Assembly: GCA_016187745.1 (NCBI GenBank)
Contig: JACPJC010000006.1
Coordinates: forward strand, 104,005-168,004
Origin: Candidatus Iainarchaeum sp.
GTDB taxonomy: Archaea > Iainarchaeota > Iainarchaeia > Iainarchaeales > JAXPJC01
Reading direction: 5' to 3'
Length of the DNA: 64,000 nucleotides
Shown here: positions 18,846 to 60,818 of the stretch, piece after piece
How the letters are laid out: each line of letters starts with the position of its first letter
Numbering within the stretch: the stretch's first letter is position 1
Notes under the pieces: generated by a model
Told to the model about the DNA's origin: nothing
Seen by the model: only the letters and a program-made list of their open reading frames with translations
Databases searched by the model: none
Made by a program: the position numbers and the translations under genes

Positions 18846-21800
18846 ATGCCCAGGACTGAAAAAGGACAGGCCGCGCTTGAGTATCTGATGACCTATTCCT
18901 GGGCGCTTGTTGCAATTGCAATAGTCATTGGAGTGCTTATTTTCATGGGAATTTTGAAGGCGCCTTCTGCTGGAACTTGCACAGGGCTTGAGAAGCTTGC
19001 ATATGAGGACCATACCATAGATTCCAACGGGAATTTCATTCTCTACTTAAAAAACGGGGCAGGAATGCAGATTGCCATCAACAGCATATCGCCGGGTGAA
19101 GATTTCAGCGGAAATTGCAGCGCAAGTTCCGCAATAATAAATGCAACAAAGGATTTCAATATTGTGTGTATCAATACAGGAATAAGCGCAGGCCAAACTT
19201 ATAATGGAAAAATAACAATTGAGTATATGCGCAGGAATGCAAAGCATACCGAAAGCGCGGCATGCTCAGGAACAGCGCCCTTGAGCGGGATATTTTTGGT
19301 TGCCCCTGCCCCGCAAATCATTGAGGGCTTTTTCAACGGTTCAGGGAACAATGTTGACCTGAACAACCCTGACGAGATGACGCTTGGGGGCGGAGGGGGT
19401 AGTTATGCATTTTTTGGCAGTTATACTTCGGATGTTTTTGATGCAAACTCAACAATGGACTGGACCGCAAGCATCTCATGGGATGAGAACGCTCCGGCAG
19501 GAACTGACATTAATTTACAAACAAGAACTTCTGACAATAATGTTGCATTTAGCGCATGGAGCGGCTATTACACAAATCCTTCAGGAGAAGCAATTACCTC
19601 CCCTAATGGGCGCTTCATACAATATAAAGCGAATTTGAGCACTACAAACCCGGCGCTTACGCCGAGATTATTGGAAGTGAGAATGCATGGGAACCCTCTT
19701 GCGCAGAGCTGCGGCAATCTGAAAAGGGAGGGAAGCGAACAATGCGATACAAATGACCTGGCAGGATCAAATTGTGTTTTATTGGGCTATTCTTCAGGCG
19801 CCCTTGCGTGCAAGGCAGACTGCACATTTGATACGAATGGATGCGTTGGCGCAACTACTACAATGCTTTGCCCTGGCAGCAAAACCTGGACTTCCCAATC
19901 AGATTGGCAGTCCGGGGCGCTTGCAAATATTGATGCTACTTCAAGCCCTGGCAGCATAAAGCTTTCGCAGCCATCAACCTCAGGAACATGGAACATTGTT
20001 GTTGATTCAAATGCCGCGCCAACAGACTGGAATGCGATAAGCTGGAGCGAGGACTTGAATTATGGGGGAGAGCTTGCAGGAGATGCTAACACAAAATTGC
20101 TTTTGCATTTGAATGAGGTCTCGGGTTTAACTGCTGCAGATGCAAGCGGGAATGGGAACAATGGAACACTAACAAACGGAGCAACATGGACTTCTTCAGG
20201 GAAGTTTGGGAATGCATTGGGCTTTGATGGAATAAATGACTACATTGATGTTTCCAATGAGTCTCTTTTTGATTTTGAAAGAACTTCTCCATTTACACTA
20301 AGTGCATGGGTTAAGTGGGCTTCAGGCACTACACAAACCTTATTATCCAAACAAACAAGTGCTGGCAACGCACCAGGATGGTTATTGATTGTTAATGCAA
20401 ATGGAACTCTGGCAATGTGGCTCGTAAATGATGCAGGTGCGGGTTGGAATCTAATACATGTCGATTCGGTGAGTTCTATAGGGCTGGGGACATGGAATCA
20501 TGTAGTAATGACTTATGATGGTTCGAGTACTGCGGCCGGAGTAAAGTTGTTTATAAATGGCAATCAAAGCGGGACAACAATAGTAACAAATACGCTTTCA
20601 GCTTCTATTCTCAACAATGTTGATGTGTGGATAGGAAATAGGCAATTTGCTGACATACCATTCAATGGTACAATTGATGAAGCTGCTATATGGAATAGAG
20701 CACTGGGTGCAGGTGAAATCCTTGAGCACTACAAGCGCGGCGCGCTGAATCTTCGATTTAGGACAAGAAGCGCACCAACGCAAGGCACCTTGAGTTCTGC
20801 TTCATGGGGTGGCTATTACACAGAATCCCCTTCAGCAATAGCTTCGCCGAACAACAAGTGGATTGAGGTTCAAGCATTGCTTGAAAATTCAGATGCAAAC
20901 TATACAAATTACACGCCAGTGCTGAATGATGTAAGCATCAGTTGTGCTGGCGCTCAAGGCAATCAGGCTCCTTTTGCAGGGCTTGGCGCTTCAGCATATT
21001 CGGCAAATGCTGGAAGCTATATTGCTTTTTATGGGAATACCTCCTATGACCCTGACGGGAATATTGTGAATTATGCGTGGAATTTCGGGGACGGGAATGC
21101 AGTTGCAAGCCCGGCAAACTATCCGCTGGGCGCAAAGACATTATTGCGTTTTGATGAGGGAATTGATTCGGCAGCAGGTGATGCGAGCGGAAACAACAAT
21201 GGTGGAACAATAAGCGGGGCTGCTTGGACCTCTTCAGGAAAGTTCGGGAATGCGCTCGCTTTTGACGGGGTTGATGATTATGTTAATTTGCCGCAAAAAA
21301 TTACAGATGCCGAAGGAACCATATCGGCATGGATTAAAACCGGCGGCGATGTTAGCAGCGCGCAAAGGATATATTCCCAATCCACAGGGGGCGCAAGCAG
21401 CAACAGGGTAGCAGTTACGATTTTGTCTGGGGCTTTCCGTTTTGACGCAGGATTTGCGCCAGGAGGAGTTCAGTTGGATATTGGCAATGTCCAGCCAAAT
21501 ACCTGGTATCATATAGTGTGGACAAGTGATGGCTCCACGATTAAAGGATATGTAAATGGGGCAAACCAGGCTTTAACTGTTACGGGGGGGAGCAACAGCG
21601 GCCAATGGTTCAGCGGCATAACCTCAAATTATGCCAGGATCGGCAATATGCGCTATGATGATATCTCAGGAAACATCCAATATTTCAACGGCACAATCGA
21701 TGAAGTTGCAATTTATAATCGCGCATTGGGCGCAGGCGAAATACTTGCCTTATACCAGGGCGGCCCTGCAGTAGTGTATCATAAGTACAATCTCGCAGGA

Positions 21801-24293
21801 GATTATAATGTTGTACTTACAGTAACTGATAATAATGGCGCAACTGATGCAAACACCGTGAGCGTAAGCATCACTTCAGGCCCGATAAGCTTCTGCCCGG
21901 GGACAAAAAGCTGGACAACGCAGGCTGATTTCAATTCAGGAAGCGATGTAAATGCTGACACTTATTCAGATCCCGGAAGCATAATTTTAACAAAAAGCGG
22001 GGAAATAGCGCCTGATGCAAACACAAAGCTGCTTATGCATTTTAATGCAAATCCGCAAACGCATTTGGGAACGGAAATGGATTCTTCAGGAAACGGAAAT
22101 AATGGAACGGTTTATACAAATGAGGGCGCAACAAACAAGGCAGTTGCAGGAAAATTCGGAAGCGCTTTGGGCTTTGATGGCATTGATGACCGCGTATCCG
22201 TCCCGGACAGCGATTACTGGAATCTGGGTTTATATTTCACTATTGGCATGTGGGTTAAATTCCAGAGCGGAACAATAGACAATGAGCATTATTTGCTGGG
22301 CTATAATTACGGGAGCAATAACAGGAATTTCTGGGTGGCATACCAGGGGCAGCTTTCGCCGGATCAGCTGCATTTTAATTTTGCCACTGACGGCTCAGGC
22401 GGCCACTTCGGGGGCATGAGCGTTGCATGGACGCCTAATGCAGGGCAGTGGTATAATATTGCAATTGTGAGAAATAGTGCTGATTTGAAGATGTTTATAG
22501 ATGGCATGCAGATCGGCTCCACTTACAATATCGGCGCAACGAGCATGTGGGCCGGCTCAACAGCAGGCATAGAAATCGGTTCGGGGCACAATTCCCGCCA
22601 TAGCGGCGAAATGGATGAAGTTGCAGTCTGGAACCGCGCGCTTTCTCCAAGCGAAGTCCTTGCGCTTTATCAGAGCGGCTCGGCATACCGCCCTTCAGGC
22701 ACATGGAACGGAGTATTTGATTCAAATTCAATTGCAAGCGGCTGGAACACAATAAATTGGGGCGAGGATTTGAATTACGGCGCTGAACTTGCAGGGGATT
22801 CCAATACAAAACTGCTTTTGCATCTGAATGAGGGTTCTGGAACAACTGCAAATGATTCAAGCGGCAATGGGAACAATGGGGCATTGTTTAACGGCCCTAT
22901 CTGGACTTCTTCAGGAAAGTTCAGGAATGCGCTGCAGTTTGATGGAACTGATGATTATGTGAAATTCTCGGCAGCAAATATGCCTACAGGGGAAAGAACA
23001 GTTGAATTGTGGTTCTATAACACAGACACAACAGCGGTGGGGGCAAGGCAGATATTCGGATATGGGGGGAACAGCAACAGCCCCGCATATTCTTCATTTT
23101 TGATTTACTCCTCCGCAGATAAGAAGGGAATTACTGCCCATATGCATTATCCCGGGGGCGGGATCCTGAATTATGCAGGAACTTCGCCGATGACCAATGC
23201 CTGGTATTACTTGGTGCTCACAACTGACGTGAGCGGAAGCAGGCTTTACATAAATGGAAGGCTGGTTGATTACAATGCAGTAACCCCTTCAACATATGTT
23301 TCGGGCAAAGATGGATTTGTGGGTGCAATGCCTTCAGGCAGCGGCACTGGAACCTATGTTGACCCGAATTATCCCTATTGGAAGGGGAATATAGATGAAG
23401 TTGCAGTTTACAACGCAGCGCTGGACGCAAATAAGATACTTGAGCATTACAGGAAGGGCGCCGCAAATATAAGATTGAGGACAAGAACTGCCGCATCGCA
23501 GCTGGCATTGAGCAGCGCGGAATGGAGCAATGAGAATGAGATTGATGCGAATTCTGACATCAATGGATTGTGGCACTTCAATGAAGGAAGCGGCAGCATT
23601 GCAAGCGACTCAAGCGGAAATGGGAATAACGGAACATTGATGAATGGAGTGGCATGGGCTTCTTCTGGAAAGTTTAAGAATGCGCTGCAGTTTGATGGGG
23701 TTAATGATTATGTTAACATAATTAAATCTGATGAGTTTCATTTAGGAGCGGGTAGTTTTGCTGTTACAGCATGGGTTAACTTTGCGGGGTTAGCCGGAAA
23801 TCAGAATATTCTTGCGTTTTATACCATTGCCAATCAGGCTTTGCAATTTGCTTGGAGTACAAACGTTTTAACTGTTTGGGGCGAAACAAGCACTGTTTTA
23901 AGCACATCAGGATTTTCCCCAACTCTTAACAGATGGTATCACGTTGCATTTGTAAGAAACGGGAATGCCTGGAATATTTATGTTGATGGCACGTCATATG
24001 CCAGTGCAACTGATGCGAGAACTTTAAATTATCCGAAGGATAATATTGGGATAGGCGTTCTGCCTACGTCCTTGCAATATTTCAACGGCAAGATAGATGA
24101 ACTTGCAATTTGGAACAGGGGATTAAGCGCAGGCGAAGTGCTCGGGCTTTACAAGAGAGGCAAATATTACACGGCAGGCCCGAGCGCAATAACAAGCGAT
24201 GCCAACAGGTTCATTGAGGTGCAGGCGCTCCTGGAAACTGAAAATTCCTCTTACACGCCGGTGCTGCAGGATTTGAACATAAGCTGCTCTTAG
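18846..24293 (+). CDS. Giant pilin-like surface protein: class III signal peptide, Cys-rich repeat, PKD domain, five LamG domains
   Basis: KG|QAALEYL plus hydrophobic helix; five 'FDGxxDxV...DExAxxNxAL' LamG units; WNFGDG...HKY...LTVTD PKD motif. Confidence 0.9.
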   Translation: MPRTEKGQAALEYLMTYSWALVAIAIVIGVLIFMGILKAPSAGTCTGLEKLAYEDHTIDSNGNFILYLKNGAGMQIAINSISPGEDFSGNCSASSAIINATKDFNIVCINTGISAGQTYNGKITIEYMRRNAKHTESAACSGTAPLSGIFLVAPAPQIIEGFFNGSGNNVDLNNPDEMTLGGGGGSYAFFGSYTSDVFDANSTMDWTASISWDENAPAGTDINLQTRTSDNNVAFSAWSGYYTNPSGEAITSPNGRFIQYKANLSTTNPALTPRLLEVRMHGNPLAQSCGNLKREGSEQCDTNDLAGSNCVLLGYSSGALACKADCTFDTNGCVGATTTMLCPGSKTWTSQSDWQSGALANIDATSSPGSIKLSQPSTSGTWNIVVDSNAAPTDWNAISWSEDLNYGGELAGDANTKLLLHLNEVSGLTAADASGNGNNGTLTNGATWTSSGKFGNALGFDGINDYIDVSNESLFDFERTSPFTLSAWVKWASGTTQTLLSKQTSAGNAPGWLLIVNANGTLAMWLVNDAGAGWNLIHVDSVSSIGLGTWNHVVMTYDGSSTAAGVKLFINGNQSGTTIVTNTLSASILNNVDVWIGNRQFADIPFNGTIDEAAIWNRALGAGEILEHYKRGALNLRFRTRSAPTQGTLSSASWGGYYTESPSAIASPNNKWIEVQALLENSDANYTNYTPVLNDVSISCAGAQGNQAPFAGLGASAYSANAGSYIAFYGNTSYDPDGNIVNYAWNFGDGNAVASPANYPLGAKTLLRFDEGIDSAAGDASGNNNGGTISGAAWTSSGKFGNALAFDGVDDYVNLPQKITDAEGTISAWIKTGGDVSSAQRIYSQSTGGASSNRVAVTILSGAFRFDAGFAPGGVQLDIGNVQPNTWYHIVWTSDGSTIKGYVNGANQALTVTGGSNSGQWFSGITSNYARIGNMRYDDISGNIQYFNGTIDEVAIYNRALGAGEILALYQGGPAVVYHKYNLAGDYNVVLTVTDNNGATDANTVSVSITSGPISFCPGTKSWTTQADFNSGSDVNADTYSDPGSIILTKSGEIAPDANTKLLMHFNANPQTHLGTEMDSSGNGNNGTVYTNEGATNKAVAGKFGSALGFDGIDDRVSVPDSDYWNLGLYFTIGMWVKFQSGTIDNEHYLLGYNYGSNNRNFWVAYQGQLSPDQLHFNFATDGSGGHFGGMSVAWTPNAGQWYNIAIVRNSADLKMFIDGMQIGSTYNIGATSMWAGSTAGIEIGSGHNSRHSGEMDEVAVWNRALSPSEVLALYQSGSAYRPSGTWNGVFDSNSIASGWNTINWGEDLNYGAELAGDSNTKLLLHLNEGSGTTANDSSGNGNNGALFNGPIWTSSGKFRNALQFDGTDDYVKFSAANMPTGERTVELWFYNTDTTAVGARQIFGYGGNSNSPAYSSFLIYSSADKKGITAHMHYPGGGILNYAGTSPMTNAWYYLVLTTDVSGSRLYINGRLVDYNAVTPSTYVSGKDGFVGAMPSGSGTGTYVDPNYPYWKGNIDEVAVYNAALDANKILEHYRKGAANIRLRTRTAASQLALSSAEWSNENEIDANSDINGLWHFNEGSGSIASDSSGNGNNGTLMNGVAWASSGKFKNALQFDGVNDYVNIIKSDEFHLGAGSFAVTAWVNFAGLAGNQNILAFYTIANQALQFAWSTNVLTVWGETSTVLSTSGFSPTLNRWYHVAFVRNGNAWNIYVDGTSYASATDARTLNYPKDNIGIGVLPTSLQYFNGKIDELAIWNRGLSAGEVLGLYKRGKYYTAGPSAITSDANRFIEVQALLETENSSYTPVLQDLNISCS

Positions 24294-31045: not shown

Positions 31046-32998
31046 ATGAAAAGGCGCGGATTTGCCCTTGGGGAAATTGCATTTGTCGTACTGATAGTCC
31101 TGGGGGTGCTGTTTGTGGCTTTTTTGGTCGCGCCGGAGCCGGAGGAAGGGCCATCGGTTCCAATTGCCAAATTTGAATCCTGCGGCGCAATAACCGCGGC
31201 ATTCAAGGAAAATGCGCAGAACTTCAGGGGCGGCATAATTTATGAAATGGGCGGAGTAATGCCCGTGATGAGTTCCGCAACAGGGGGCGCAAAGGACCAG
31301 GGCGCTGCGAGCTACTCAACAACAAATGTGCAGGTGGCAGGCGTTGATGAGGCGGACATTGTGAAAAATGACGGGAAATATATCTATGTGGTTTCGGGAA
31401 ACAAACTGATTATTGCAGATGCATATCCTGCTGAAAGCGCGGAAATTCTTTCCTCAACAGAACTGGGGGAAAACATAACCCCGCAGGAGATGTTCATTGG
31501 AGAGGATAGCGTGCTGGTTTTTGCAAATAATTATGTGCAGCAATACACCAGGCAGATGGAAATTGGGGGGGATGTTATAATGCCCGGCTTCAGCACAACA
31601 ATCGCGCAGCTGTGGGACGTTTCAGACAGGGAAAACCCGATATTGGAGAAGAGCGCGGAATTCGAGGGAAGCTACTTGACTTCAAGGAAAATAGGCAGCA
31701 ATGCTTACTTTGTAATAAACAGCAATCCATATTATTACTGGCTTTATGAGGAAACTGTCAATGATGAAATTACCATCCCTAAGTACAGGGAACTGGGCGC
31801 GGAAGAGCTGGATTCCGGGAAGGAAATTGAATTTGAGCCGGTTGCAAAATGCGGGGAAATTGCGTATTTCGAGCCAATACAGGCAAGCGCATTCATAACA
31901 ATCGCATCAATGAACATTGATGATTTTGATGCCGAAGTGAAAAAGCAGACAATTGTGGGATCGGGGCAGAATGTTTATGCCTCGCTTGATGCGCTTTACC
32001 TTGCAGAAGTGAATTACAATTATGGCTTTGCAATCCCCTTCATAGGGGATGTTATGCCCCCTGAGAACCCTGAGGAGACAATTATACATAAGTTTGCATT
32101 GAAGGACGGCGATGCGTCATATTCCGGCTTTATGGAAGCCCCAGGGCATATTCTGAACCAGTTCTCGATGGACGAATTCAATGGGTATTTCAGGATTGCA
32201 ACAACAAAGGGCGAAGTGTGGAGCGGAAACTCAACAAACAATATTTATGTGTTTAACAGCGACTTGAACATGGCGGGAAAGCTTGAAGAGCTTGCGCCGG
32301 GGGAGAAAATCTATTCGGCGCGCTTCATGGGGGAAAAGGCATATCTGGTAACTTTCAAGAAGGTTGACCCGTTATTTGTAATAGATTTGAGCAATCCGGA
32401 GAAGCCTGAAGTTCTGGGCAAGCTGAAGATTCCGGGGTATTCGGATTATTTGCATCCGATTGATGAAACGCACATAATAGGATTGGGGAAGGAGGCTCTT
32501 GAGGCGGATGAGGGGGATTTCGCATGGTACCAGGGGATTAAGATTGCGATATTTGATGTTTCAGATGTGGAAAACCCTAAGGAAATGTATAAAACAGCCA
32601 TTGGGGACCGGGGAACAGATTCCTATGCGCTTCATGACCATAAGGCATTCCTCTATGATAGGGGAAAGAATCTGCTTGTAATTCCAATTCTCCTTGCTGA
32701 AATAAACGAGGCGCAGTATCCTGAGGGGGTGGAAAAAAACACATATGGGGATTACACGTTCCAGGGCGCTTATGTGTATAACCTGACGCTTGAGAACGGC
32801 TTTGAGCTTAAGGGAAGGATAACGCACCTGGATGCGGATGATGAAAGCCTGCAAAAGTCTGGCTACTATTATGACAGCACAAACTCGATAAAAAGGGCGC
32901 TTTACATTGATGATGCGCTCTACACAATCTCAGATGCGAAGATACTTGCAAATTCATTGAATGACCTTTCACAGATAAGCGAGCTGAAGATTGCATAA
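31046..32998 (+). CDS. Secreted beta-propeller domain protein
   Basis: YSTTNVQVAGVDEADIVKNDG, LNQFSMDE, VTFKKVDPLFVID, LKIPGYSDYLHP. Confidence 0.9.
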   Translation: MKRRGFALGEIAFVVLIVLGVLFVAFLVAPEPEEGPSVPIAKFESCGAITAAFKENAQNFRGGIIYEMGGVMPVMSSATGGAKDQGAASYSTTNVQVAGVDEADIVKNDGKYIYVVSGNKLIIADAYPAESAEILSSTELGENITPQEMFIGEDSVLVFANNYVQQYTRQMEIGGDVIMPGFSTTIAQLWDVSDRENPILEKSAEFEGSYLTSRKIGSNAYFVINSNPYYYWLYEETVNDEITIPKYRELGAEELDSGKEIEFEPVAKCGEIAYFEPIQASAFITIASMNIDDFDAEVKKQTIVGSGQNVYASLDALYLAEVNYNYGFAIPFIGDVMPPENPEETIIHKFALKDGDASYSGFMEAPGHILNQFSMDEFNGYFRIATTKGEVWSGNSTNNIYVFNSDLNMAGKLEELAPGEKIYSARFMGEKAYLVTFKKVDPLFVIDLSNPEKPEVLGKLKIPGYSDYLHPIDETHIIGLGKEALEADEGDFAWYQGIKIAIFDVSDVENPKEMYKTAIGDRGTDSYALHDHKAFLYDRGKNLLVIPILLAEINEAQYPEGVEKNTYGDYTFQGAYVYNLTLENGFELKGRITHLDADDESLQKSGYYYDSTNSIKRALYIDDALYTISDAKILANSLNDLSQISELKIA

Positions 32999-36340: not shown

Positions 36341-39300
36341 TTAATCGTTTTTCAGCACTTTTTGGAACCTTATCTGCTGCTTGGCGCCCCTTCCCCTGTG
36401 GCGCATGTAGAAAATGAATCCTATGAGCGCAAACAGGGGGAGCGCGGCAAGGGGAAGAAGCGGAATTTGCTGCTGACCGTCCTGGAGGGAAAGGAGCAGC
36501 ATTGCGCTGCCTGAAAGCGCTATCGATTTCAGGTAATTGGATTTTGCAATTTCCGATTTGGAGCTTTTCATGAGCTCAGGGATGCGCGAGTCCGCAAGCA
36601 TTGCGCTGTTGAGCTTGGAGTTTGTTTTTGTATAGTTTGCAATTGCATCCTCCCTCAAGCGCCGCTCAGCATTCTCAAGCTCTGCGGAAATTGCTTCCGC
36701 CTCCTGCAGGCGGGTTTCAAATTCCGGGGAAATTCCCTCATAGCCTGAAAGCGCTTCTTCAAAGCCCTGGGATGTGCTCTTCTTGATGAATTCATTGAGG
36801 CTCGCGCCCAATTTAAGGGAATCCAGGCGCGTTATCTCAAGCAGGATTTTTTCAATCCTCTCCCTTGTTATCGGGGGGATATAATCAAGCCTGTTTATTA
36901 TTCCTTGGGTGATTTCATTGAAATTCTCCGCAAGCCTTGAGGCGCGCGCCTTCAATCCGGTTTCGGAGAGCAGGGAGGAAAACCTGCTGATTTTTTCCGA
37001 TATTGATTCTGTTTTCTGCATCAGCTGGCTTTTTATGGCATTTTCATACTCGTCTGTTTTTTCGGCAAGCGCATCCAATGCGGATTTCGCATCGGCATAA
37101 TTCCCGCCCATTATTGAGCTTTCAATTCTTGAGCTTAAATCAAGCGCGGCTTCCTTTAGCTGCAGGGAGTTGTAATCCCGGATCTTGAAGCGGAGCATGC
37201 GCTCAATCGCGCTGTTCGCCTTCTGCATAAGCGCGCTCTTGTCGTTTGAAAGGAGCATTGCAAGGTTCTTGCTGCTGCGCTCGTTCAGGAGCGCTTTTGC
37301 CCTGAACAATGCGCCCAATGCTGAATCGTAATCCGGAATGGATTTGCTTGTTTGCGCATCTTCCGCATACTGCCGGGCCTTCTGCACATTTGAATTTAGC
37401 GCGCCTGCCTGCTCCGCATATCCGAATGAAGTGAGCTTTGCAATTTCCCCTTCTGCCTCATTTACCTCATCGGAAACCTGCGAGCTCAGCTGCGCGTACT
37501 GCGAAGATTGCTGCAGGAGCGTTTGTTCCCTTTCAAGCAGCTTTTCTGCTTCCTTCGCAATTGCACTTATTGAATTTATGTGCCTGCTTTCAGTGAAATC
37601 CGAAGTGCTGCCAATTTCTGAAAGCTCTTCCGCAAGCGATGCCGAGTAACCAGCTATTTCCCCGCTTTCGGAACTTGCAAGCGATGAAAGCCTGCTTTGC
37701 AGCCCATCAATGACTCTTTGCCAATAATCCAGATAATTCCGCACTTCATAGGAAAAATAAAACTGCATTGATTGCTGCGGGTAAAGCTCTGGAACAACAA
37801 ATGAAATTTTGCCCGCATCAATTATCTCAAATCCGATTTCCTTCCCGGAGGAATCAAAGAGCTCCCCGTTCCTTATTTCCCCTGCGGAAATTGCAATTGG
37901 GACTGCGACCCTTGTTTTGAGGATGGGAATTTCAAGGTTGTTTTTCATTGAAATCAGGAAATCATAGGCCGTTGCGTTCTCATCAATTTTCTCTGAATTC
38001 AGCAGCCCAACATTCGCATCAACCGGATTTGCAATGGAAAAATAAATTTCAATCTGCTGCCTATCGCGCGCGTTCTGCAGGATGAATTCTATTGAATTGC
38101 CGTTTACCGCGCTTTCAATTTGCCTGCTGTCGGAATAGACAAAAGCGTCGCTTATGGGGTAATTCCCCGCGGGCGAGGAAATTTTAAGCACCGGAAGGTC
38201 AGCATTAGCCTTTATCGTGATGGTGCGCCTCACTGCGGCCTTGCCAACATCAACAAACAGCAGCTTGTCTTCCTGTTCCGAACTTGCGGCAACCGCATTC
38301 ACATCAAAAAGCGCAAGGGTTTTTCCCGGGGGAAGGGAAGAAAGCGCAAAAGAAATTTTTCCCTGCGAATATTCTGCCGAGATTATATTGGGGGCTGCGT
38401 ATGCAAGCCTCAGGCCTGAAAGGCCCTCAAGGGGGATTTCAAACTTGATTTCATCGTAAAGCGCCTCATTGAGGGGATTTTCAAATGAAATTCGCAATTG
38501 CGAGGCGTACAGGGAATCAAGTAGCGGAACTTCCCCTGCAATGAGCTCCTTTGCGTAGGAGTTCCGGAGGTATTTTGAAATTGCATCCTTGAGAAGGGAG
38601 CGCAGTTCCGCCGAAAATTCTTCAAGGTTTGCATTCAGCTCGGGCGCGAGCGGCATTACCGCTGGCAGGTCAATCTCATTCTCAGGGAAGAATTTCCGGA
38701 ATGAGGAGAACTTTGAATTTATTTTGCCCATTTCCGAATCTGAAACAAATCCTGCGTAATTTGAATTGGCGCCTTTTATGGCCTCAATTATCCTGCCTGT
38801 TTCTGAGAATTTCCCTGAAATTTCCTGAATTTCCGGATTGTTGGAGAGATAGGCATAGGCATCCTGCTTCAATTGGGTGCAGGCCTGCAGAAGCTGCTCA
38901 GGATTCTCGCTTTCCGGGAGAAGGGCCTGCAGCTTGAAGAACCTTGGCTGGAAGTCCTTCAGTTCTTCCGCGCCTTCAGAGAATAATCTTTGCAGATAGC
39001 CCGCGCAATTGCGCAGCCCATTCTCATTTGCCTCCTCGAACTCCGCAAAATCGGTTTTTGCGCCAGCATAGGAATTGTACATTTCAATAACCGGCTTGCA
39101 TGCAATGAGCTTCTGCCTTTGGGAGTTTGAGTCAAGGTAGCCTGCAATATTGTATGCGAGCCTTGCCCTGAGGTCTGAAAGCTTACTGCTCTCAATATCA
39201 ATATTCAGGCCCTCCCTTATTGCATTTATGCGCGAATCGCAAAGCACTTCCAAACCCTGCAGCACCTCGCTGCTGAAATAATCAAGCCCTGAATTCAGGT

Positions 39301-40585
39301 GCTTAATTCCGCCGAGAATTCCCTTGAGCCCTGAAACGCTTTCCCCTGAAGAGGCTTTTCCAAGAGCCTCCAGCTCCAAAAGGGAATTGAATTTCTGCGA
39401 TAATTCATACAGCTTTCCTGAGCTTGCCTCCTTGAAAAGCGCGATGTCGCTGATGCTCTGGGTCTGCGTTGCAATCTCGCTCTTCTGGCCAAGGAGCGCA
39501 TACAATCCCGAAAGGAAATTGGAATCAAACGGGGAATATGCCTCGGAATCAATATCCGCAATCCTTGAGTTTGAGGATGCAAGGAGCTTCTGTATTTCCT
39601 GCTTCAGCGATGCGCTTCTTTGCGAGAGGGAATCCCTTGCCCAGTAATCCTTGCGCATCAGCTCCGCAAATTCCTTCGCGACTGAATTTTCAGCCCCGGA
39701 AAAGTCATTGAAGAAATTCAGCACCTCAAATGCCGGAAACTTCAAAAGCGCATTGAGGGAGGGGTCGACCTTGCTCCGCATCGTAATGTAATTTATAATT
39801 CCCGAAATCGCATCCGTTATGAGCGGAATATAAAATTTGTTCTTTTCATTTTTTGCTGCTTCCTTGAGGAGCGGCCCGTCATAGTAGGAGATGAAATCCC
39901 ATATGTTTGATTCTTTTGTTGTTATTTTGCTGAATCCGTATGCATCCGCAAGCCTGTTGAAGGCATTTAGGCGTGAAAAATAGAATTTCACATAGCTTTC
40001 CGGGAATTTTTCATTTGCGCTTGACTGTATTGCCTCTGGGTTTTTCAGCTCATTGAGGTTGTTGTTAAGCAGTATGTAGAACGTGTAGAGCTCCTCCTCC
40101 TTTATTTTCCTGATCTCCTGCCTTTCCAAATCTGCCGCTTCCAGAAGAAGGATTTCAAAGCTTGCAGTGTTTGCAAATTCAGCGCTCCTGAATTCCTCAT
40201 TCAAGTTGCTGTTCAGTTCGTTCACATTCCTCGGAAGGAGCGCAAGATCCGAATCCGAGGCGCAGAGCTGGTAAATCCTTTTTATGTTCGCAATCGCGCG
40301 GTTGTGGAAAAGCCACGCCCTTGCAAGGTAATTTTTGTAGAGGTTCAGTTTTTGGGAAGTGGATGCTGAGAACTGCGCATCGGGGAAATTGAAGAGGCCT
40401 GCATTGACCTGCTGGAAGCAGGCTTCCTGCGTTTCGCATTTCGGGATTGAGGTTTTTGAGTGCGAGGCTAGCTGCAGGCACTGCTCCCTTTGTTCCGGGG
40501 CAAGCTTCTGCTGCAGGCAGCCCGAAGTGAGAATAAGAAATGCGAGCAGAAGCGCGAGAATTGCGAAAATTTTTTTGTTCGGCAA
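36341..40585 (-). CDS. Giant hypothetical surface protein (lipobox-like N-terminus, helical regions, Ig-like core, C-terminal TM)
   Basis: 1414-aa open frame; ILTSGC; C-terminal LPLFALIGFIFYM followed by a basic tail. Confidence 0.8.
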   Translation of the reverse strand: MPNKKIFAILALLLAFLILTSGCLQQKLAPEQREQCLQLASHSKTSIPKCETQEACFQQVNAGLFNFPDAQFSASTSQKLNLYKNYLARAWLFHNRAIANIKRIYQLCASDSDLALLPRNVNELNSNLNEEFRSAEFANTASFEILLLEAADLERQEIRKIKEEELYTFYILLNNNLNELKNPEAIQSSANEKFPESYVKFYFSRLNAFNRLADAYGFSKITTKESNIWDFISYYDGPLLKEAAKNEKNKFYIPLITDAISGIINYITMRSKVDPSLNALLKFPAFEVLNFFNDFSGAENSVAKEFAELMRKDYWARDSLSQRSASLKQEIQKLLASSNSRIADIDSEAYSPFDSNFLSGLYALLGQKSEIATQTQSISDIALFKEASSGKLYELSQKFNSLLELEALGKASSGESVSGLKGILGGIKHLNSGLDYFSSEVLQGLEVLCDSRINAIREGLNIDIESSKLSDLRARLAYNIAGYLDSNSQRQKLIACKPVIEMYNSYAGAKTDFAEFEEANENGLRNCAGYLQRLFSEGAEELKDFQPRFFKLQALLPESENPEQLLQACTQLKQDAYAYLSNNPEIQEISGKFSETGRIIEAIKGANSNYAGFVSDSEMGKINSKFSSFRKFFPENEIDLPAVMPLAPELNANLEEFSAELRSLLKDAISKYLRNSYAKELIAGEVPLLDSLYASQLRISFENPLNEALYDEIKFEIPLEGLSGLRLAYAAPNIISAEYSQGKISFALSSLPPGKTLALFDVNAVAASSEQEDKLLFVDVGKAAVRRTITIKANADLPVLKISSPAGNYPISDAFVYSDSRQIESAVNGNSIEFILQNARDRQQIEIYFSIANPVDANVGLLNSEKIDENATAYDFLISMKNNLEIPILKTRVAVPIAISAGEIRNGELFDSSGKEIGFEIIDAGKISFVVPELYPQQSMQFYFSYEVRNYLDYWQRVIDGLQSRLSSLASSESGEIAGYSASLAEELSEIGSTSDFTESRHINSISAIAKEAEKLLEREQTLLQQSSQYAQLSSQVSDEVNEAEGEIAKLTSFGYAEQAGALNSNVQKARQYAEDAQTSKSIPDYDSALGALFRAKALLNERSSKNLAMLLSNDKSALMQKANSAIERMLRFKIRDYNSLQLKEAALDLSSRIESSIMGGNYADAKSALDALAEKTDEYENAIKSQLMQKTESISEKISRFSSLLSETGLKARASRLAENFNEITQGIINRLDYIPPITRERIEKILLEITRLDSLKLGASLNEFIKKSTSQGFEEALSGYEGISPEFETRLQEAEAISAELENAERRLREDAIANYTKTNSKLNSAMLADSRIPELMKSSKSEIAKSNYLKSIALSGSAMLLLSLQDGQQQIPLLPLAALPLFALIGFIFYMRHRGRGAKQQIRFQKVLKND

Positions 40586-41804: not shown

Positions 41805-44684
41805 TTGCACAACAAAGATAGCAGATTCCCATTATTTTGCTTGCTGGTTGCGCTGTTTGCAATTGTTCTATTCCAGGGCGTTTCCGCTGTTTATTCCTGG
41901 AACCTGCAGTCAAGCACTGGAACTGCAACGGCATGGAGCAACCACAAATACTTGGCAAGGGCCGATGAGAATACGCTCTATGCAATATTTGTAAGCGACA
42001 ACAATGTTTATTTCACCCGCTCAACAAATGACGGGATTGACTGGAATGCGCCTGTACTGATCAGTACACTAAAGAAGGGGGTTAGGGAGCCTTCTGTTAA
42101 TCCCTCAATTTTGCTGGATTCAAGCAATGTGCTGCATGTTGTGTGGCAGGACTGGTATTACAGTGACCAAAGTAAAAATTGGGAGATTTTCTACAGGAGC
42201 TGCGACACAGCGCTTGCTGATTGCACCAATGCAGGCAACTGGAGCGCAATAACAGACATAAGCAATGATGCTGCTGAAAATAATTATCCGCTGATGGCAA
42301 TTGATTCAGGCAATGCCAAGCATGTGATATGGCAGCAGAATAGGGAAATTTATTACACAAAGTGCTCATCAAACTGCAATGTTGCGGGCAATTGGAGCGC
42401 TGCGGTAAATGTGAGCAATACGGCAACAGAATCATACAATCCCTCAATAGTTGTAACATCCGACAGGAACGTTGGGATTGTCTGGGAAGAAGTGACAACT
42501 CCTGAAGAGATTTATTACAAGACCTGCGCCTCTGCAACAGCAGATTGCTCAAGCTTCTCTAACTGGAGCGCTGCGGTAAATGTGAGCAATGATGCAAACG
42601 AATCCTTCTACGCAAGGGCCGTTGTTGATTCCGCGGACAGGACGCATATTGTATGGAGCGAAACCGGCGATGATTTCTCTAGCTCTTATACGCTTTACAA
42701 ATCCTGCGCGGGCGCCTGCGGAAACGCAGCAAAATGGAAAAACAAGGCGCTGGTGAGCGACTGGAACTCCGGGAAATTGAATGAGGATGCGTTTATCATT
42801 ACGGATTCCAGCAACAGGGCGCACATATTCTGGCTTGAGACTGCAAATGGCATTGGGAACATAAGATACAGGACAAGAACTTCTGCAGGCACTTGGGGCG
42901 CAATAACAGAGCTTACAAATGATTTGAGCATTGGCTATTTGGGAATCACATGCAATTACGCTGATTTCAATCCTGCTGCGAATTACGAGAAGCTTGATTG
43001 CGTGTGGACAAACAAATCAAACAGCAAGCTAGTGTATTTTGCAATAACAAAGGAGCCTGTTCCGATAAGCGTTCCGGGCGACCAGGGAAAGCTGCTGCCA
43101 ACGCATACATATCTGACAGTAAATCCCACAAACCTTTCAAGCGCAACCCCGGCAGGCGCAAACACCATAACCGTAACTGAATTCAGCATTTACTCCCCCT
43201 ATACATTCGGTGCCGGAACCCTGCTCCCGTGGTATTACGTAATCAACAGCACCCTTAACAACTACACATTCACAATACGGCTTGTTGTTTCATATTTGGA
43301 CAGGGACAATGACGGCTATGAGGACATAACAGGAAGGGATGAGAATACGCTTGCGGTTGCGTATTGGGACAATGGCCAATGGACAACAGTAAGCGGCTCT
43401 GTGAACCAAACAAACAACTATATCCTTATAACAACAGACCATTTCTCAACATTTTCGCTGGTTTCGCTTGACAATCCTGAGCCGCAGCTGGCTGTTGCAA
43501 CCCTGAGTGTCACTCCAAAGAAGAAAAATATCAGGGAGGACAGTAAATTTGATTTTGTTGTGCATGTTACGGGCGCCGGGGATTTGAGTGCATTTGCAAA
43601 CGCAACAAGCGCAACATTCAGCAATGGCGCTTATGCGCTTACTGGAATAAATTATGATGCTGCAAATAACCAGCTTGACATGAAGATTGATGCGGGAGTA
43701 CTGGAAGAAAACATTTATGAATTTGAGCTGCTCTCAATAGATGGCACAAAGTTCAGCACAAATCTGGATTCTGCAACAGTCTTCAGGCCAGGGCCTGGCC
43801 TTTCCTCTGCAAAAAAAAAACTAATTTCCCCGGGGATAACCCCTGATATGCTGTTCTACCCCTTCAAAAGGCTCTTTGAGAACTTGGACCTTCTTTTCAC
43901 ATTTGAAAAGGCGCAAAGGATAGAGAAGCATGCGCACTATGCGGAACTCAGGCTGAGCGAGGCTGTTGCCATGGTCGAGGCGGATAAGCCCGAATATGTC
44001 GATGCCCTGCTTGAGCAGTACGTATATAACATGTCCGCATCAAACAAGGAGTTCAAGGAGGTTGAGGATCTCGCAGACATGTATCCGGATCTGAGCGAGC
44101 TGCTTGCTGAAGCAACTGCAATACATTTGCGTGTCATTGGGGAAGTTTCAGGAAATGTTTCCAAAGCAGCACAGGACACATTGGATAGGGTTGAGGACAT
44201 CTCATCAATCGGGCATGAGCAGGCGGTAAAAACCCTTGCAAAAGAAAATCCTGCAAAGGCCGCGGATATTGTAATAGGCGCCGGCATTGATGCCCTTGAC
44301 AAGGCAGTTTCTGCCACCGGAGAGATGAAAGAGGGCGAGGCCAAAAAGAACATTGAATCATTTGAGAGGCATCTGCAAACAGCGGGTGAAATAATCCAGG
44401 CCGCAGGAGAATCCGGGAAGGAAACAACAAGTGCAGAGAGGGCAATTGCTGTTGTGGCAGCAGAGAGCATTGAAAAGCTGCTTCAGATACATGATGAAAG
44501 TTCCTCTGGCACAACAAGGGAAGCGGCGGAAAACGCAATAATAAACGCGCTTGAAGAGCACAGCAGGGCTGTTACTGCACTTGAGGACAAGAGCGAAGAG
44601 GCAAAGGAGAAATCAGCAATCCCAAGCGAGATTAGGGAAAAAATTGAAAGGATAAAAGAAGAAGTGGGAAATAGGGCAAAATAG
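41805..44684 (+). CDS. Secreted BNR/sialidase-like beta-propeller fused to a DUF5667-like helical domain
   Basis: Signal peptide, STNDGIDW, repeated D-S-x-x-x-x-H-I/V-V-W blades, TDHFSTF, PGITPDMLFYPFKRLFE. Confidence 0.75.
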   Translation: MHNKDSRFPLFCLLVALFAIVLFQGVSAVYSWNLQSSTGTATAWSNHKYLARADENTLYAIFVSDNNVYFTRSTNDGIDWNAPVLISTLKKGVREPSVNPSILLDSSNVLHVVWQDWYYSDQSKNWEIFYRSCDTALADCTNAGNWSAITDISNDAAENNYPLMAIDSGNAKHVIWQQNREIYYTKCSSNCNVAGNWSAAVNVSNTATESYNPSIVVTSDRNVGIVWEEVTTPEEIYYKTCASATADCSSFSNWSAAVNVSNDANESFYARAVVDSADRTHIVWSETGDDFSSSYTLYKSCAGACGNAAKWKNKALVSDWNSGKLNEDAFIITDSSNRAHIFWLETANGIGNIRYRTRTSAGTWGAITELTNDLSIGYLGITCNYADFNPAANYEKLDCVWTNKSNSKLVYFAITKEPVPISVPGDQGKLLPTHTYLTVNPTNLSSATPAGANTITVTEFSIYSPYTFGAGTLLPWYYVINSTLNNYTFTIRLVVSYLDRDNDGYEDITGRDENTLAVAYWDNGQWTTVSGSVNQTNNYILITTDHFSTFSLVSLDNPEPQLAVATLSVTPKKKNIREDSKFDFVVHVTGAGDLSAFANATSATFSNGAYALTGINYDAANNQLDMKIDAGVLEENIYEFELLSIDGTKFSTNLDSATVFRPGPGLSSAKKKLISPGITPDMLFYPFKRLFENLDLLFTFEKAQRIEKHAHYAELRLSEAVAMVEADKPEYVDALLEQYVYNMSASNKEFKEVEDLADMYPDLSELLAEATAIHLRVIGEVSGNVSKAAQDTLDRVEDISSIGHEQAVKTLAKENPAKAADIVIGAGIDALDKAVSATGEMKEGEAKKNIESFERHLQTAGEIIQAAGESGKETTSAERAIAVVAAESIEKLLQIHDESSSGTTREAAENAIINALEEHSRAVTALEDKSEEAKEKSAIPSEIREKIERIKEEVGNRAK

Positions 44685-45320: not shown

Positions 45321-46445
45321 TCAGCCAAGCATTGACTGCCCCTTCGACCATCTCTCGGATATTTCGCTTGCGGACAAGGCCCTGTTGTGCACTGCAAGCT
45401 CATCAACCTTGCCGTCGAAATTTGTTGAGGTTCCGCCTCCGCCGGAGCCGATGTAAAGGTTCTTGGTCAGCGCGGGGTTTATTGGGCCTGTGTAAGCCTG
45501 TGCCGTTCCTTCAGCGCCATCAACATAAATTCTGATATAGTTGCCATCATAAGTGCCAACAATATAGCTCCACTTTCCAATATAAGTGGAAGAGGGGAAC
45601 TGCTTGTACGCGCTGCTCAGGTTGTTTTCAACGCTGAATCTTATTTTCTCAGGCCCGAACCACACCCCATAGCCCTCAAACAGCCCGCCGAGGAATTTGC
45701 CAACGGGGGACCTATCTTGGACTATGGCATCAGGATTTATCCATGCCTCAACCGTGATTTTATCCGTAATGTTAAGGCTTGCGCCATTGCCGCAATCGGC
45801 CTGGCTATATAGATTGCCACCAGGATCAGAAATGAATTCCAGACCGCCGCCAAATGCCCCGCTGACCCAGAATACATTAGCAGGATTCCATAGCAGGCAG
45901 TCATTGTGATTTGAAGTTGCATCAAACAGATTATCCCCCGAGCCCTCATTGAAGTGCCATAATGCAACCGTATTCGCATCAGGCTGCATTAGTTCAGTTC
46001 CTGCAGCCCTCTGGCTTGCCTTCCCCACACATGTGATTTTCTCATAATGCCTTCCATACCTGCCCCGCTTATAGCTTACTGTTATTTCCCCCTTGTACGT
46101 GTCTCCTGCCTTTTTTGTTGTCTGGCCTGAAACCTTGAAGAAATTCCCTTCCAGGACTGTGTTTGCGCTTATTGCCCCCTGCCCTGAGAAATCCCCGCTG
46201 AAGCTTGCTTCAAGCTCTGTTATCCTATAGCCTGTGCCATTTGCGAGATATAGCGAGAAATAGCCGTTGTGGTCCATTGTATGGTCATTATATGCGAGAA
46301 ACTGCGAGCCCGTGCAATATTCTGCGCTTGGCGCATTCAATATGCCCATAAAAACAAGCACTCCAACCACTATCGCTATTATGACCAATGCAAAGCCATA
46401 GGTTGTTAAGTATTCCAGGGCCGCCTGCCCTTTGTTTTTGCGCAT
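45321..46445 (-). CDS. Pilin-like protein (class III signal peptide) with a single LamG domain
   Basis: KG|QAALEYL; LWHFNEGSG...FDGKVDELAVHNRAL. Paralogous N-terminus to 18846..24293. Confidence 0.88.
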   Translation of the reverse strand: MRKNKGQAALEYLTTYGFALVIIAIVVGVLVFMGILNAPSAEYCTGSQFLAYNDHTMDHNGYFSLYLANGTGYRITELEASFSGDFSGQGAISANTVLEGNFFKVSGQTTKKAGDTYKGEITVSYKRGRYGRHYEKITCVGKASQRAAGTELMQPDANTVALWHFNEGSGDNLFDATSNHNDCLLWNPANVFWVSGAFGGGLEFISDPGGNLYSQADCGNGASLNITDKITVEAWINPDAIVQDRSPVGKFLGGLFEGYGVWFGPEKIRFSVENNLSSAYKQFPSSTYIGKWSYIVGTYDGNYIRIYVDGAEGTAQAYTGPINPALTKNLYIGSGGGGTSTNFDGKVDELAVHNRALSASEISERWSKGQSMLG

Positions 46446-53829: not shown

Positions 53830-55251
53830 ATGCGGCAGAAAGGGCAGGAAGCGGTTGAATACCTTGCGGTAATAATAGTGATGCTGCTTATTGTCGGGAT
53901 TATTTTTGTGTATTCGCTTGACCTTTCCCAGCGCACCGTAATAACGGAGCAGGCAAGGAATGCCGTAAAAACCCTCGCGAATTCCGCGGACCTTGTTTAT
54001 GCCTCCGGCCCGGGAAGCAAGATATATGCGGAAATAGAGCTGCCTGCAAACCTTGAGGGGGAAATCCTCGGGGACAATGAAATAGGCTATAAGGTCAGAA
54101 TAGGGGATGCACTTACCGACATATATGAGGTGACAAAGGCGCAGGTTACCGGGGAGCTTCCAATAGAGGCGGGAAAGCATTCAGTTGCGCTTGAGATGCT
54201 TGACAGCGGGTTTGTTAGGATAGGCGCAGGATTGATATTGAGCCCGAACAAGATTGCAAAAACAATTCTTCCGGGAAACAGCTCAAGCGAAACCCTTACC
54301 GCATGGAATTCAACTTCCGCTTCCCTTTCCGGAATAACAAACTCGAAATCCGGGGGCATTGATGCGTTTACAAGCTTGGGGGCAATATCCTCAACGCTTG
54401 ATGCAAATGCCTCGGACAGCTTTGACGCGCTATTTAACATTCCCTCGGGAACCTCCTCATCCACTTACTCCGGATATGTTGCTGTCGATTCAAATTCCGG
54501 GCAGGGGGACAGGGCCCTGGTGCAGATATTCGTGCCGCAGGTCCTTACAAACATCAATGTGAAGGCCTATTCCGACTCAAATTATTCCTCGCATTCAGTC
54601 AATTTCGGAATCGGCTCAACTGTTTATTTTGAGGTTCTTGCCTATGACCAGGGCGCTTCGCCTGTTTCGCTTTCAGACCTTAATGTTTTTGTGAAAAACC
54701 CTTCCGGAAGCGATGTGAATGTGTTCAGGAACTTAAGCGCGCCGAACGGGAGATACCTGGGGACTTTCAAGGTTCCGTGCGATGGCGCTTCCGGAAGCTG
54801 GACAATACTCGCAAACGGAAAGGCGTATTCCGCAGTGAGCGACTCAAATAATTTCAATGTAACAACAGTGGAGCAGCAGAGCTTCTTCGAGTTTGACTGG
54901 CTTACCGCGAGCTTTGCCTCCGCAGGGAAACATCTCAATGATTGGACTATCCGCAATATTGGCTGCGGAAGCATAACAATAACAGACATGAATGTCGCGT
55001 GGTTCAATGATGCGGACAATGCAAAGCTGAAGAAAATAAGATTCAGCAATTCGGAAGTGTGGAGCGGCACATCTTCAGGAAACAGCTTCCTGAACATAGA
55101 TGATTATTCCATAGGCGCCGGCATAGAGATAAGCACAAACAACAAGCTTGAATTTGATGATGAAGTGAATGACAATTCAGAGCAGTTCATCCTTACATTC
55201 AAATTCGGGGACGGAAGCACATACAAGACCCCAACATACTCTGCAGGCTGA
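53830..55251 (+). CDS. Pilin-like protein (class III signal peptide) with Ig-like extension
   Basis: KG|QEAVEYL plus hydrophobic helix; Ser/Asn-rich beta domains. Confidence 0.85.
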   Translation: MRQKGQEAVEYLAVIIVMLLIVGIIFVYSLDLSQRTVITEQARNAVKTLANSADLVYASGPGSKIYAEIELPANLEGEILGDNEIGYKVRIGDALTDIYEVTKAQVTGELPIEAGKHSVALEMLDSGFVRIGAGLILSPNKIAKTILPGNSSSETLTAWNSTSASLSGITNSKSGGIDAFTSLGAISSTLDANASDSFDALFNIPSGTSSSTYSGYVAVDSNSGQGDRALVQIFVPQVLTNINVKAYSDSNYSSHSVNFGIGSTVYFEVLAYDQGASPVSLSDLNVFVKNPSGSDVNVFRNLSAPNGRYLGTFKVPCDGASGSWTILANGKAYSAVSDSNNFNVTTVEQQSFFEFDWLTASFASAGKHLNDWTIRNIGCGSITITDMNVAWFNDADNAKLKKIRFSNSEVWSGTSSGNSFLNIDDYSIGAGIEISTNNKLEFDDEVNDNSEQFILTFKFGDGSTYKTPTYSAG

Positions 55252-55261
55252 TGGGAATTTT

Positions 55262-55654
55262 ATGAAGGGCAGCATAGGGATTGAAACTATTGCGGTTGTA
55301 ATGCTCCTGCTTGCGATGTTCGTAATCATAAATCTTTCAATAATAAACAACACGGATTTGGTAAATGCGCTGTCCGAGCAGTTCAGGCTGCAGGCAGAAT
55401 GCAAGAAGGTTGCGGGCATAATAAGCGGAATTTACAGCGCGGGGGACGGCGCAAAATGGCAGGGGGAAATTGACAGGAATGCCGCAGTTTATTCCGATTA
55501 CATTGACTTGTGGGATGGGAATTCCGGGTTCCCTGAACTTAAAAGCGTTTACTGCGCATTTTATGCGGATCTTAATGAAAGCGATTTCAATCTGGCAAGC
55601 GGGGGCATAATTGTTGAAAACAGCAGCGGGAAGGTTGTGATAAAAAATGCCTGA
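55262..55654 (+). CDS. Minor pilin-like protein
   Basis: KG|SIGIE plus hydrophobic helix. Confidence 0.8.
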   Translation: MKGSIGIETIAVVMLLLAMFVIINLSIINNTDLVNALSEQFRLQAECKKVAGIISGIYSAGDGAKWQGEIDRNAAVYSDYIDLWDGNSGFPELKSVYCAFYADLNESDFNLASGGIIVENSSGKVVIKNA

Positions 55655-56135: not shown

Positions 56136-56139
56136 CGGG

Positions 56140-56571
56140 ATGCGGAAGGGGCACATGCTGACCCTCGATGCCGCATTCTCAATAGTCATACTTATGGCCC
56201 TTGTGGGGATCATGGGCTATGTGCCATTGATGGGGAGCAACGACCCCTACTCCGGGCTCAATATGCAGAGGAGCATGAATGATGCGCTTGACCTGCTTGA
56301 TGCGCAGGGGGTCCTGCAGCAGTTTGATTCGAATAAAATTTCCACGGAGATAGATTCAGCAATGCCCGTGCAGTATTCGTGGAGGATGCGCATTGAGAAA
56401 TTCTCCTATGCGAATGACTCATTTACGGAAAGGGATGAGATAAATTTCGGCGCGGGCGATGCAAACCTCTCGGGAAAGGATTTGATGCACGGGAGAAGGC
56501 TTTTCCTTACATTTAAGGACAATGAAATTGAGTATTTCTATGATGCGCAGTACTGGGTATGGGTGAAATGA
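56140..56571 (+). CDS. Minor pilin-like protein
   Basis: KG|HMLTLDA plus hydrophobic helix. Confidence 0.8.
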   Translation: MRKGHMLTLDAAFSIVILMALVGIMGYVPLMGSNDPYSGLNMQRSMNDALDLLDAQGVLQQFDSNKISTEIDSAMPVQYSWRMRIEKFSYANDSFTERDEINFGAGDANLSGKDLMHGRRLFLTFKDNEIEYFYDAQYWVWVK

Positions 56572-60816: not shown

Positions 60817-60818
60817 AA

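Follow-up and report, generated by a model that had tools for sequence, protein, structure and literature searches.

A pilin-like archaeal protein whose five LamG domains are very likely nested in the loops of scaffold and PKD domains

The 64,000-nucleotide stretch of Candidatus Iainarchaeum sp. analysed here (contig JACPJC010000006.1, positions 104,005 to 168,004 of the forward strand; hereafter the window) carries a gene of 1815 codons plus stop at 18846-24293 (+ strand, ATG start), the product of which we call the giant protein. We consider it probable that the giant protein is a modular, type IV pilin-like adhesin from an archaeon with a small genome, combining a pilin module, a branched display of laminin G (LamG) domains and exchange of LamG cassettes. 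The nested architecture, in which whole LamG domains interrupt other domains, is very likely. The frame on the + strand runs without interruption to 24293 from the ATG at 18846, or from an in-frame TTG at 18828. Residues are numbered here from the TTG, residue i beginning at 18828 + 3(i – 1), and all features of the giant protein given below lie on the + strand. A database protein of 1815 amino acids with the ATG start (P0002) is 100% identical to the giant protein.

The Pfam model Laminin_G_3 (PF13385) matched five stretches of the giant protein (E 1.5e-102, 340.5 bits compared to a cut-off of 27.6), and a local profile placed the five LamGs at residues 420-636, 771-977, 1064-1282, 1325-1542 and 1577-1776. 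A DNA motif encoding the LamG C-terminus occurs in five copies that are 62-75% alike and end at 20741, 21764, 22679, 23459 and 24161. The initial annotation of this gene, made by a model from the sequence alone, had proposed ranges for five LamGs; the local profile agrees with these ranges, and the copies of the DNA motif end within 1-2 bases of the proposed ends. Structural models of the LamGs aligned with domain 4 of AbnA, an arabinan-binding domain, at Z scores of 23.4-24.7 (best root-mean-square deviation [rmsd] 2.0 over 192 residues), and also resembled, at the level of fold only, clostridial toxin binding domains in the lectin-like N-terminal half. A further search candidate was set aside: the only NCBIfam match of the giant protein was to TafC (NF052521), which reached 139.9 bits against a cut-off of 410 and came from the LamG stretches only.

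The domain that most of the LamGs interrupt is best described from its one intact copy, scaffold copy 1 (19305-19703), a jelly-roll beta-sandwich identified by an independent profile and by AlphaFold2. To build the profile, we took 150 intact domains from other proteins and excluded the giant protein's family and its paralogue. It matched residues 183-288 with 115.3 bits, in agreement with the intact scaffold unit that had been annotated initially. The AlphaFold2 model of copy 1 (30-row alignment) had a mean predicted local distance difference test score (pLDDT) of 80.2 and a predicted template modelling score (pTM) of 0.75, and its residues 40-133, mostly with pLDDT >90, form six strands. When residues 160-292 were searched against 1.84 billion cluster representatives, there were 2422 matches with E 0.001 or better, of which 350 reached 1e-10 and 16 reached 1e-30; the best 150 mostly align as a single contiguous block of ~90-100 residues. 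No Pfam family matched the scaffold at E up to 10, the ESM Atlas returned unnamed clusters only, and in a Foldseek search with the scaffold model no PDB match reached E 0.001; the top match stood at E 6.1e-3, with the PNGase C-terminal domain and CBM32 / F5-8 type C domains next in the ranking. VIA-align matched the scaffold to a phage tail protein jelly roll (Z 9.9, rmsd 2.8, 119 residues) and to 2g9g (Z 8.1). By these comparisons, the fold is that of a generic jelly roll to which no specific relative can be assigned. We conclude that the scaffold is a genuine, widespread beta-sandwich for which no curated family exists.

The second and third copies of the scaffold are split. Copy 2 consists of an N-terminal part that runs to the ISW motif (19866-20045; alignment, profile and predicted packing on the C-terminal part) and a C-terminal part (20745-20945; profile and complex prediction), separated at what we call site B, after ISW, by LamG 1 (20046-20744; Pfam, local profile and DNA motif). 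Copy 3 consists of four pieces: the first strands, an N-terminal extension (21891-22001) that aligns with residues 347-383 of copy 2; piece 2, SGTW...INW (22692-22760; alignment and profile); piece 3, IRLRTRT...EWS (23463-23531; alignment, profile and an order test); and piece 4, from YYT to the C-terminus (24165-24290; profile). Between them lie LamG 3 at site A (22002-22691; Pfam and local profile), LamG 4 at site B (22761-23462; Pfam, local profile, BLASTP and DNA motif) and LamG 5 at site C (23532-24164; Pfam and local profile). In copy 2, the scaffold profile aligned residues 379-416 with its positions 31-69 (5.2 bits) and residues 641-707 with positions 68-130 (26.5 bits); in copy 3, it aligned residues 1280-1321 with positions 31-69 (9.2 bits), residues 1545-1578 with 66-97 (0.3 bits) and residues 1785-1820 with 94-129 (19.7 bits). 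The pieces are strictly ordered and complementary, with breakpoints in the profile at 69/68, 69/66 and 97/94. Since the short pieces are weak singly, it is this complementary pattern of breakpoints that argues, at the sequence level, for split copies. A phmmer search of the giant protein with the single sequence of copy 1 also recovered the pieces in order, two of the five with a conditional E >0.1. When the LamGs were deleted in silico, a check suggested with the initial annotation, the rejoined copies aligned end to end, copy 2 with copy 3 at 55.6% identity (124 columns), copy 1 with copy 3 at 39.7% and copy 1 with copy 2 at 31.3%.

As a control, we scored every order of the rejoined pieces against the profile. 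For copy 3, the 6 of 24 orders that place piece 3 directly before piece 4 scored 40.9-46.0 bits, and the remaining 18 orders scored 25.2-33.2 bits. This gap supports the junction at site C. A BLASTP comparison of the unaltered regions gave three long matches, the best of which aligned residues 385-660 with residues 1290-1566 (41.6% identity, E 5e-59) and ran unbroken through host piece, LamG and host piece. At the DNA level, a 263-nucleotide repeat (19980-20242 and 22695-22957, 74%) covers the junction after ISW. The unbroken match and the DNA repeat across the junction indicate that the scaffold, with a LamG already in place after ISW, was duplicated as a unit.

The remaining LamG interrupts a PKD domain (PF18911 / PF00801). 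The PKD_4 model matched residues 712-760 to profile positions 1-48 of 85, corresponding to the N-terminal part up to WNFGDG (20946-21098), and the PKD model matched residues 967-1010 to positions 36-76 of 80, corresponding to the C-terminal part from HKY (21780-21890). Both models scored above their cut-offs, and the two parts lie ~225 residues apart with LamG 2 between them (21099-21779; Pfam, local profile and DNA motif). Complementary profile positions on the two sides of a LamG indicate one nested insertion. Colinearity, Pfam and profile thus place the LamGs in three loops of the scaffold and one of the PKD domain, four different loops in all, as had been proposed in the initial annotation.

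The possibility that the separated halves would not form one domain, raised with that annotation, was addressed by structure prediction. We submitted residues 347-411 and 636-707, the halves of copy 2, which are 228 residues apart, as separate chains, each aligned to 19 intact domains. They were predicted to reassemble with an interaction prediction score from aligned errors (ipSAE) of 0.81 (0.81, 0.78 and 0.82 in individual runs), compared to 0.00 for the best of three controls. The predicted complex had 171-180 contacts and pLDDT of 86-88 on both sides, and the runs agreed on at least 95% of contacts. In calibration, 58 of 80 solved complexes and 2 of 110 mismatched pairs attained this ipSAE mark, a guide that is rough here, where the alignments were our own. 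The prediction thus has the halves of copy 2 forming one unit, and any reassembly of the split halves is to be read as a predicted one. In the closest predicted contacts, the GTWNIV strand meets the IEVQALL strand and ISW meets the last strand. Contacts with the C-terminal half were also predicted for the first strands of copy 2 (residues 347-355 and 368-382). Site A, the position of LamG 3 in copy 3, would accordingly be internal to the domain and not precede it.

We compared the giant protein segment by segment with two close orthologues, P0003 (1440 amino acids) and P0004 (1620 amino acids), both of which have the same order of pieces. The host pieces showed 81-91% identity to P0003 and 64-88% to P0004. 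LamG 4 (78% and 75% in P0003 and P0004, respectively) and LamG 5 (88% and 80%) were conserved in both. LamG 3 was 81% identical in P0003 compared to 38% in P0004, and LamG 2 was 36% and 47% identical between PKD flanks that were 81-90% identical. Copy 2 with its LamG 1 was absent from both orthologues. A survey of homologues for the individual inserts, also suggested with the initial annotation, gave a mixed picture, with the host pieces kept, LamG 2 divergent in both orthologues, LamG 3 divergent in P0004 and the module carrying LamG 1 missing. What the sequence itself shows is the order of the domains, the colinear arrangement of the pieces and a mosaic of conservation. The Cys-rich linker between scaffold copies 1 and 2 (19704-19865; seven Cys in 54 residues), for which no Pfam match was found at E up to 10, was 74-77% identical in P0003 and P0004. 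In P0004 (residues ~697-885), an extra stretch of ~185 residues lies inside the site-A LamG, after the first LamG strand; it gave only a sub-threshold match to DUF1583 and may be a third level of nesting. When 30 genomes of the same order were searched, none gave a match at E 1e-30 or better.

The simplest reading of the mosaic, as far as sequence comparison goes, is that LamG cassettes have been exchanged between genes and strains at fixed sites. A possible example of such relationships is P0272, a linear array of 921 amino acids with three LamGs, a dockerin match and a C-terminal membrane anchor: its first LamG was 70% identical to LamG 5 (136/194) and its third was 59% identical to LamG 3 (120/203). 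No P0272-like gene was found in the giant protein's own genome. The conserved ends of the LamGs could guide exchange. Very fast divergence of single LamG cassettes is a conceivable alternative to exchange as the source of the differences. The initial annotation had the architecture arise by repeated insertion of one cassette, and this part of it was not borne out. The five LamGs were 28.4-38.8% identical in pairwise comparisons, which argues that they are not recent copies of one cassette; the insertion after ISW was inherited by duplication and not made twice; and the split module is found in other proteins.

To look for the same design elsewhere, we scanned with local profiles a set of 390 proteins, biased in that it consists of LamG-rich matches and the best scaffold matches. 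The scaffold was found in 167 of them, with 429 matches, of which 366 were intact. Complementary split pairs numbered 20 in 14 proteins, two of the 14 being the giant protein under two identifiers. In 17 of the pairs, the first piece ended at profile positions 60-70, the hairpin after ISW, and the second resumed at 49-68; the inserts in these pairs were 194-554 residues long and usually comprised one or two LamGs. In the other three pairs (the two identifiers of the giant protein and P0004), piece 2 ended at 70-73 and the last piece started at 88-89, a range that takes in both site B and site C. LamGs at both site A and site B were found in P0014 (twice), P0071, P0090 and P0327, and a break near site C only in the giant protein's family and P0247. 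By a crude motif scan of the same set, a PKD domain split by a LamG occurred only in P0001 to P0004. Sources of the split scaffold include Woesearchaeota (P0014 and P0033), Micrarchaeota (P0329) and an entry named only 'archaeon' (P0246). In P0071 (residues 349-646), the loop after ISW holds an insert containing DUF2341 in place of a LamG, and SLH domains are present in the protein; judging from P0071, split scaffolds probably occur outside the archaea as well.

The N-terminus of the giant protein resembles that of a type IV pilin. The pilin-type (class III-like) signal at 18846-18956, read directly from the sequence, consists of the leader MPRTEKG, with predicted cleavage after the Gly, and ~25 hydrophobic residues; the mature N-terminus would begin with QAALEYLMTYSWALVAIAIVIGVLIFMGIL. 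With Gly at –1, Q at +1 and Glu at +5 (QAALE), the leader is of the kind first annotated here. The rule for class III signals is a short charged leader with a terminal Gly, Glu at +5 and ~20 hydrophobic residues (PMC9934059), and the leader of the giant protein follows this rule as read from its sequence. The signal is followed by a pilin-sized globular module (18957-19304), recognised by its likeness to a 156-amino-acid paralogue and from the ESM Atlas. Residues 5-146 were 68% identical to this paralogue, which is made of the N-terminal module alone. The module is common to the 156-amino-acid paralogue and four larger ones, and the motif KGQAALEY recurs in three paralogues, the 156-amino-acid one included. 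Pfam returned nothing for the module at E up to 10. In the ESM Atlas, the nearest clusters, which we take as leads only, were archaeal proteins of 145-155 amino acids (score 0.96-0.97), and in one such cluster 20% of the members carried Class_IIIsignal, again a lead only.

Three paralogues with this module lie nearby. A 374-amino-acid paralogue (45321-46445, – strand) has the same leader (MRKNKGQAALEYL) and the pilin-sized module, followed by a single LamG that is not nested (Laminin_G_3, E 2.5e-26). Past the window end, a 594-amino-acid paralogue (L002 571-2355, – strand) comprises the pilin module, an intact scaffold, an unassigned middle part and a second scaffold, and it adjoins the 156-amino-acid paralogue (L002 2472-2942, – strand), a candidate major pilin.

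Possible assembly machinery is encoded at 59242-62693 (+ strand), with a T2SSE-type ATPase (59242-60816) and two T2SSF-type membrane proteins (60819-61706 and 61713-62693); the gene of the 156-amino-acid paralogue lies ~6 kb past these ATPase and platform genes. In the genome as a whole, profile matches numbered two for PF01478, three for PF00437 and five for PF00482, and the two Peptidase_A24 (prepilin peptidase) genes are on another contig (contig 1). We infer that the leader of the giant protein would be cleaved by a prepilin peptidase and the protein incorporated at a pilus tip. On this evidence, an adhesin at the tip of a pilus is a plausible reading, which we favour somewhat.

Several observations weigh against the reading of the giant protein as a nested adhesin of the pilin type, and they bear on different parts of it. 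Against its pilin part, Class_IIIsignal (PF04021) gave no match on the N-terminal 154 amino acids at E up to 10. This model is a narrow one, scoring above its cut-off in 1 of 14 control genomes, and in a scan of the present genome it had only two matches, both on contig 1. The gene also stands outside the pilus locus, among archaeal housekeeping genes (DNA polymerase D subunits, Cdc6, a Hel308-type helicase, NAC, a proteasome subunit and FttA), with ~35 kb between it and the pilus-type genes, and a subunit of ~190 kDa would fit poorly in a filament except at the tip. The same nested multi-LamG protein might then not be a pilus subunit at all but a surface adhesin or wall protein, held by its hydrophobic helix as a membrane anchor, whether cleaved or not. 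We regard this as rather unlikely in view of the Gly at –1 and Glu at +5 in the leader, the 68% identity of the module to a pilin-sized paralogue near ATPase and platform genes, and the presence of prepilin peptidases in the genome.

Against the nested architecture, three of the five split pieces are individually weak, scoring below 10 bits alone (5.2, 9.2 and 0.3 bits). In the order control, the two orders of copy 2 were tied (29.1 compared to 30.4 bits), which does not discriminate the junction after ISW, and the true order of copy 3 ranked fourth of 24. An AlphaFold2 prediction of residues 706-1821 (26-row alignment; mean pLDDT 67.9, pTM 0.37) gave the four LamGs pLDDT of ~70-90 and every host piece less than ~50, leaving the stretches between the LamGs unstructured; the alignment was almost without depth over the host pieces. 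The alignments for the complex of the copy 2 halves were built from intact domains, so that this prediction amounts to a homology argument. Taken at face value, the low piece scores and the unstructured stretches are what a simple linear array of LamGs would give, with linkers that resemble parts of scaffold and PKD domains by chance. Chance would, however, have to produce ordered, non-overlapping pieces that jointly cover the whole profile, twice, as well as PKD parts at complementary Pfam positions. It would also have to account for host pieces conserved at 81-91% between orthologues around two LamGs at 36-47%, for a predicted reassembly with ipSAE of 0.81 against 0.00 in the best control and partner pLDDT of at least 85, and for the same complementary split in 12 other proteins. 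We therefore hold a linear array to be very improbable. An assembly chimera or a decaying, functionless gene, which might be suspected in a draft of 10 contigs, is hardly credible for 1815 open codons with an identical protein recorded from two contigs and orthologues of 1440 and 1620 amino acids that keep the order of the pieces. Finally, with respect to function, LamG domains bind proteins and lipids as well as glycans.

With the nested pilin-like adhesin as the preferred reading, the following arrangement can be envisaged. The leader and the pilin-sized module would form the N-terminus, and the remainder would be a stalk of small beta-sandwich host domains, namely three copies of the unnamed jelly-roll scaffold and one PKD domain. 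Four host loops would take up whole LamG (concanavalin-A-like) domains, each chain leaving the host and re-entering it at one point, and scaffold copy 3 would carry three LamGs on a host of ~125 residues. The host domains would thereby serve as sockets that project the LamGs sideways, and the result would be a branched, five-headed and probably carbohydrate-binding adhesin for attachment to another cell or a surface. The composite module with its insertion after the ISW hairpin would be old and inherited, and the LamGs at the other sites would recombine between genes and strains, with binding specificity varying on a conserved frame. Glycan binding and a role in host recognition would follow from the kind of domains displayed, and an adhesin function in host recognition, as was proposed initially, is the most reasonable reading of the protein. 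Much more speculatively, and with considerable doubt on our part, the jelly-roll scaffold may be a dedicated display socket with three permissive loops, into which LamGs and other cassettes are swapped by recombination in small-genome archaea and some bacteria, making up a combinatorial device at the pilus tip that sets the host cell of an episymbiont.

Elements of this architecture are known from other systems. Split domains of RTX adhesins are reportedly the subject of Graham et al. (2024, Proteins). The host domains of the giant protein are a jelly roll without a Pfam model and a PKD domain, compared to the Ig-like extender domains described for RTX adhesins. In RTX adhesins, ligand-binding domains are described as budding from 'split domains' with adjacent termini; carbohydrate-binding modules are among the inserts, and nesting within nesting also occurs, as with an insert in a vWFA domain (PMC12077191). 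As in the giant protein, a beta-sandwich of the stalk, for example in Aeromonas hydrophila AhLap as described there, is interrupted by a whole ligand-binding domain with its ends together. Unlike the RTX adhesins, the giant protein is archaeal, its N-terminus is pilin-like, three inserts share one host domain and all five inserts are LamGs. No Pfam family for RTX repeats or a type I secretion signal was found in it at E up to 0.1, and it ends in a scaffold strand. By analogy, the giant protein may work like the RTX split-domain adhesins without being a member of that group.

A second likeness, by description, is to PilC of Streptococcus sanguinis, which is reported to combine a class III signal, a pilin module and a grafted concanavalin-A-like lectin, to bind glycans and, in a model, to sit at the pilus tip (PMC9934059). 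PilC as described is 52.8 kDa with one lectin attached end-on, compared to ~190 kDa and five nested LamGs in the giant protein. DPANN archaea are described as having expanded sets of LamG proteins, with up to five LamGs each and a proposed role in host attachment (PMC5498576, PMC10266531), and some genes for LamG surface proteins are described as linked to type IV pilus loci (PMC5498576). The passages of these accounts that concern LamG proteins deal with domain content, with no mention there of nesting or of exchange between strains, both of which are proposed here for the giant protein. The TafC protein of haloarchaeal Tat-fimbriae, as described in PMC11821415, resembles the giant protein in having LamG-like regions in an archaeal surface-filament protein, and differs in its leader, which is twin-arginine in TafC and pilin-type here. 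In the main texts of the open-access literature, we found no description of a nested or inserted LamG architecture, nor, in the portions of those texts that bear on the subject, of LamGs nested in archaeal hosts, of three inserts in one small domain or of insert exchange. The initial annotation knew of no described system with this architecture. This stands for nested LamGs in archaea as far as the open-access texts go, and does not stand for split domains, lectin-bearing pilins and LamG-rich DPANN proteins, which are known. The design principle is known from bacteria, and the giant protein is an unusually dense form of it that bears a clear mark of cassette exchange.

Little is known of the ways in which ultrasmall archaea locate and retain their hosts, and LamG-rich proteins are the usual suspects. 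Such proteins have so far been seen as strings of beads; here the LamGs appear to be mounted sideways on conserved sockets, and a specificity-determining part would be expected to behave as the LamGs do, differing at a given socket between near-identical orthologues. The analysis yields concrete cassettes for expression and testing and draws attention to a host domain that is widespread and lacks a family model. It would also carry over to pilin-like proteins of archaea a rule known from bacterial RTX adhesins, by which a split domain indicates a ligand-binding one.

The genome is a 0.96 Mb draft in 10 contigs, 91% complete, a size that is as expected for an ultrasmall, host-dependent archaeon. 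Elsewhere in the window, the ATPase and platform genes belong to a type IV filament-like locus at 53830-62693 (+ strand), which also encodes a 473-amino-acid protein with a weak MG2 match, three open reading frames of ~160 amino acids, one of them with a weak DUF7287 match, and open reading frames of 282 and 548 amino acids with no clear family. Two further open reading frames may encode large surface proteins: one of 1414 amino acids (36341-40585, – strand), for which no Pfam family was found at E up to 0.01, and one of 959 amino acids (41805-44684, + strand) with DUF5667. A 650-amino-acid protein encoded at 31046-32998 (+ strand) matched Beta_propel (PF09826) over its full length (E 6.2e-167).

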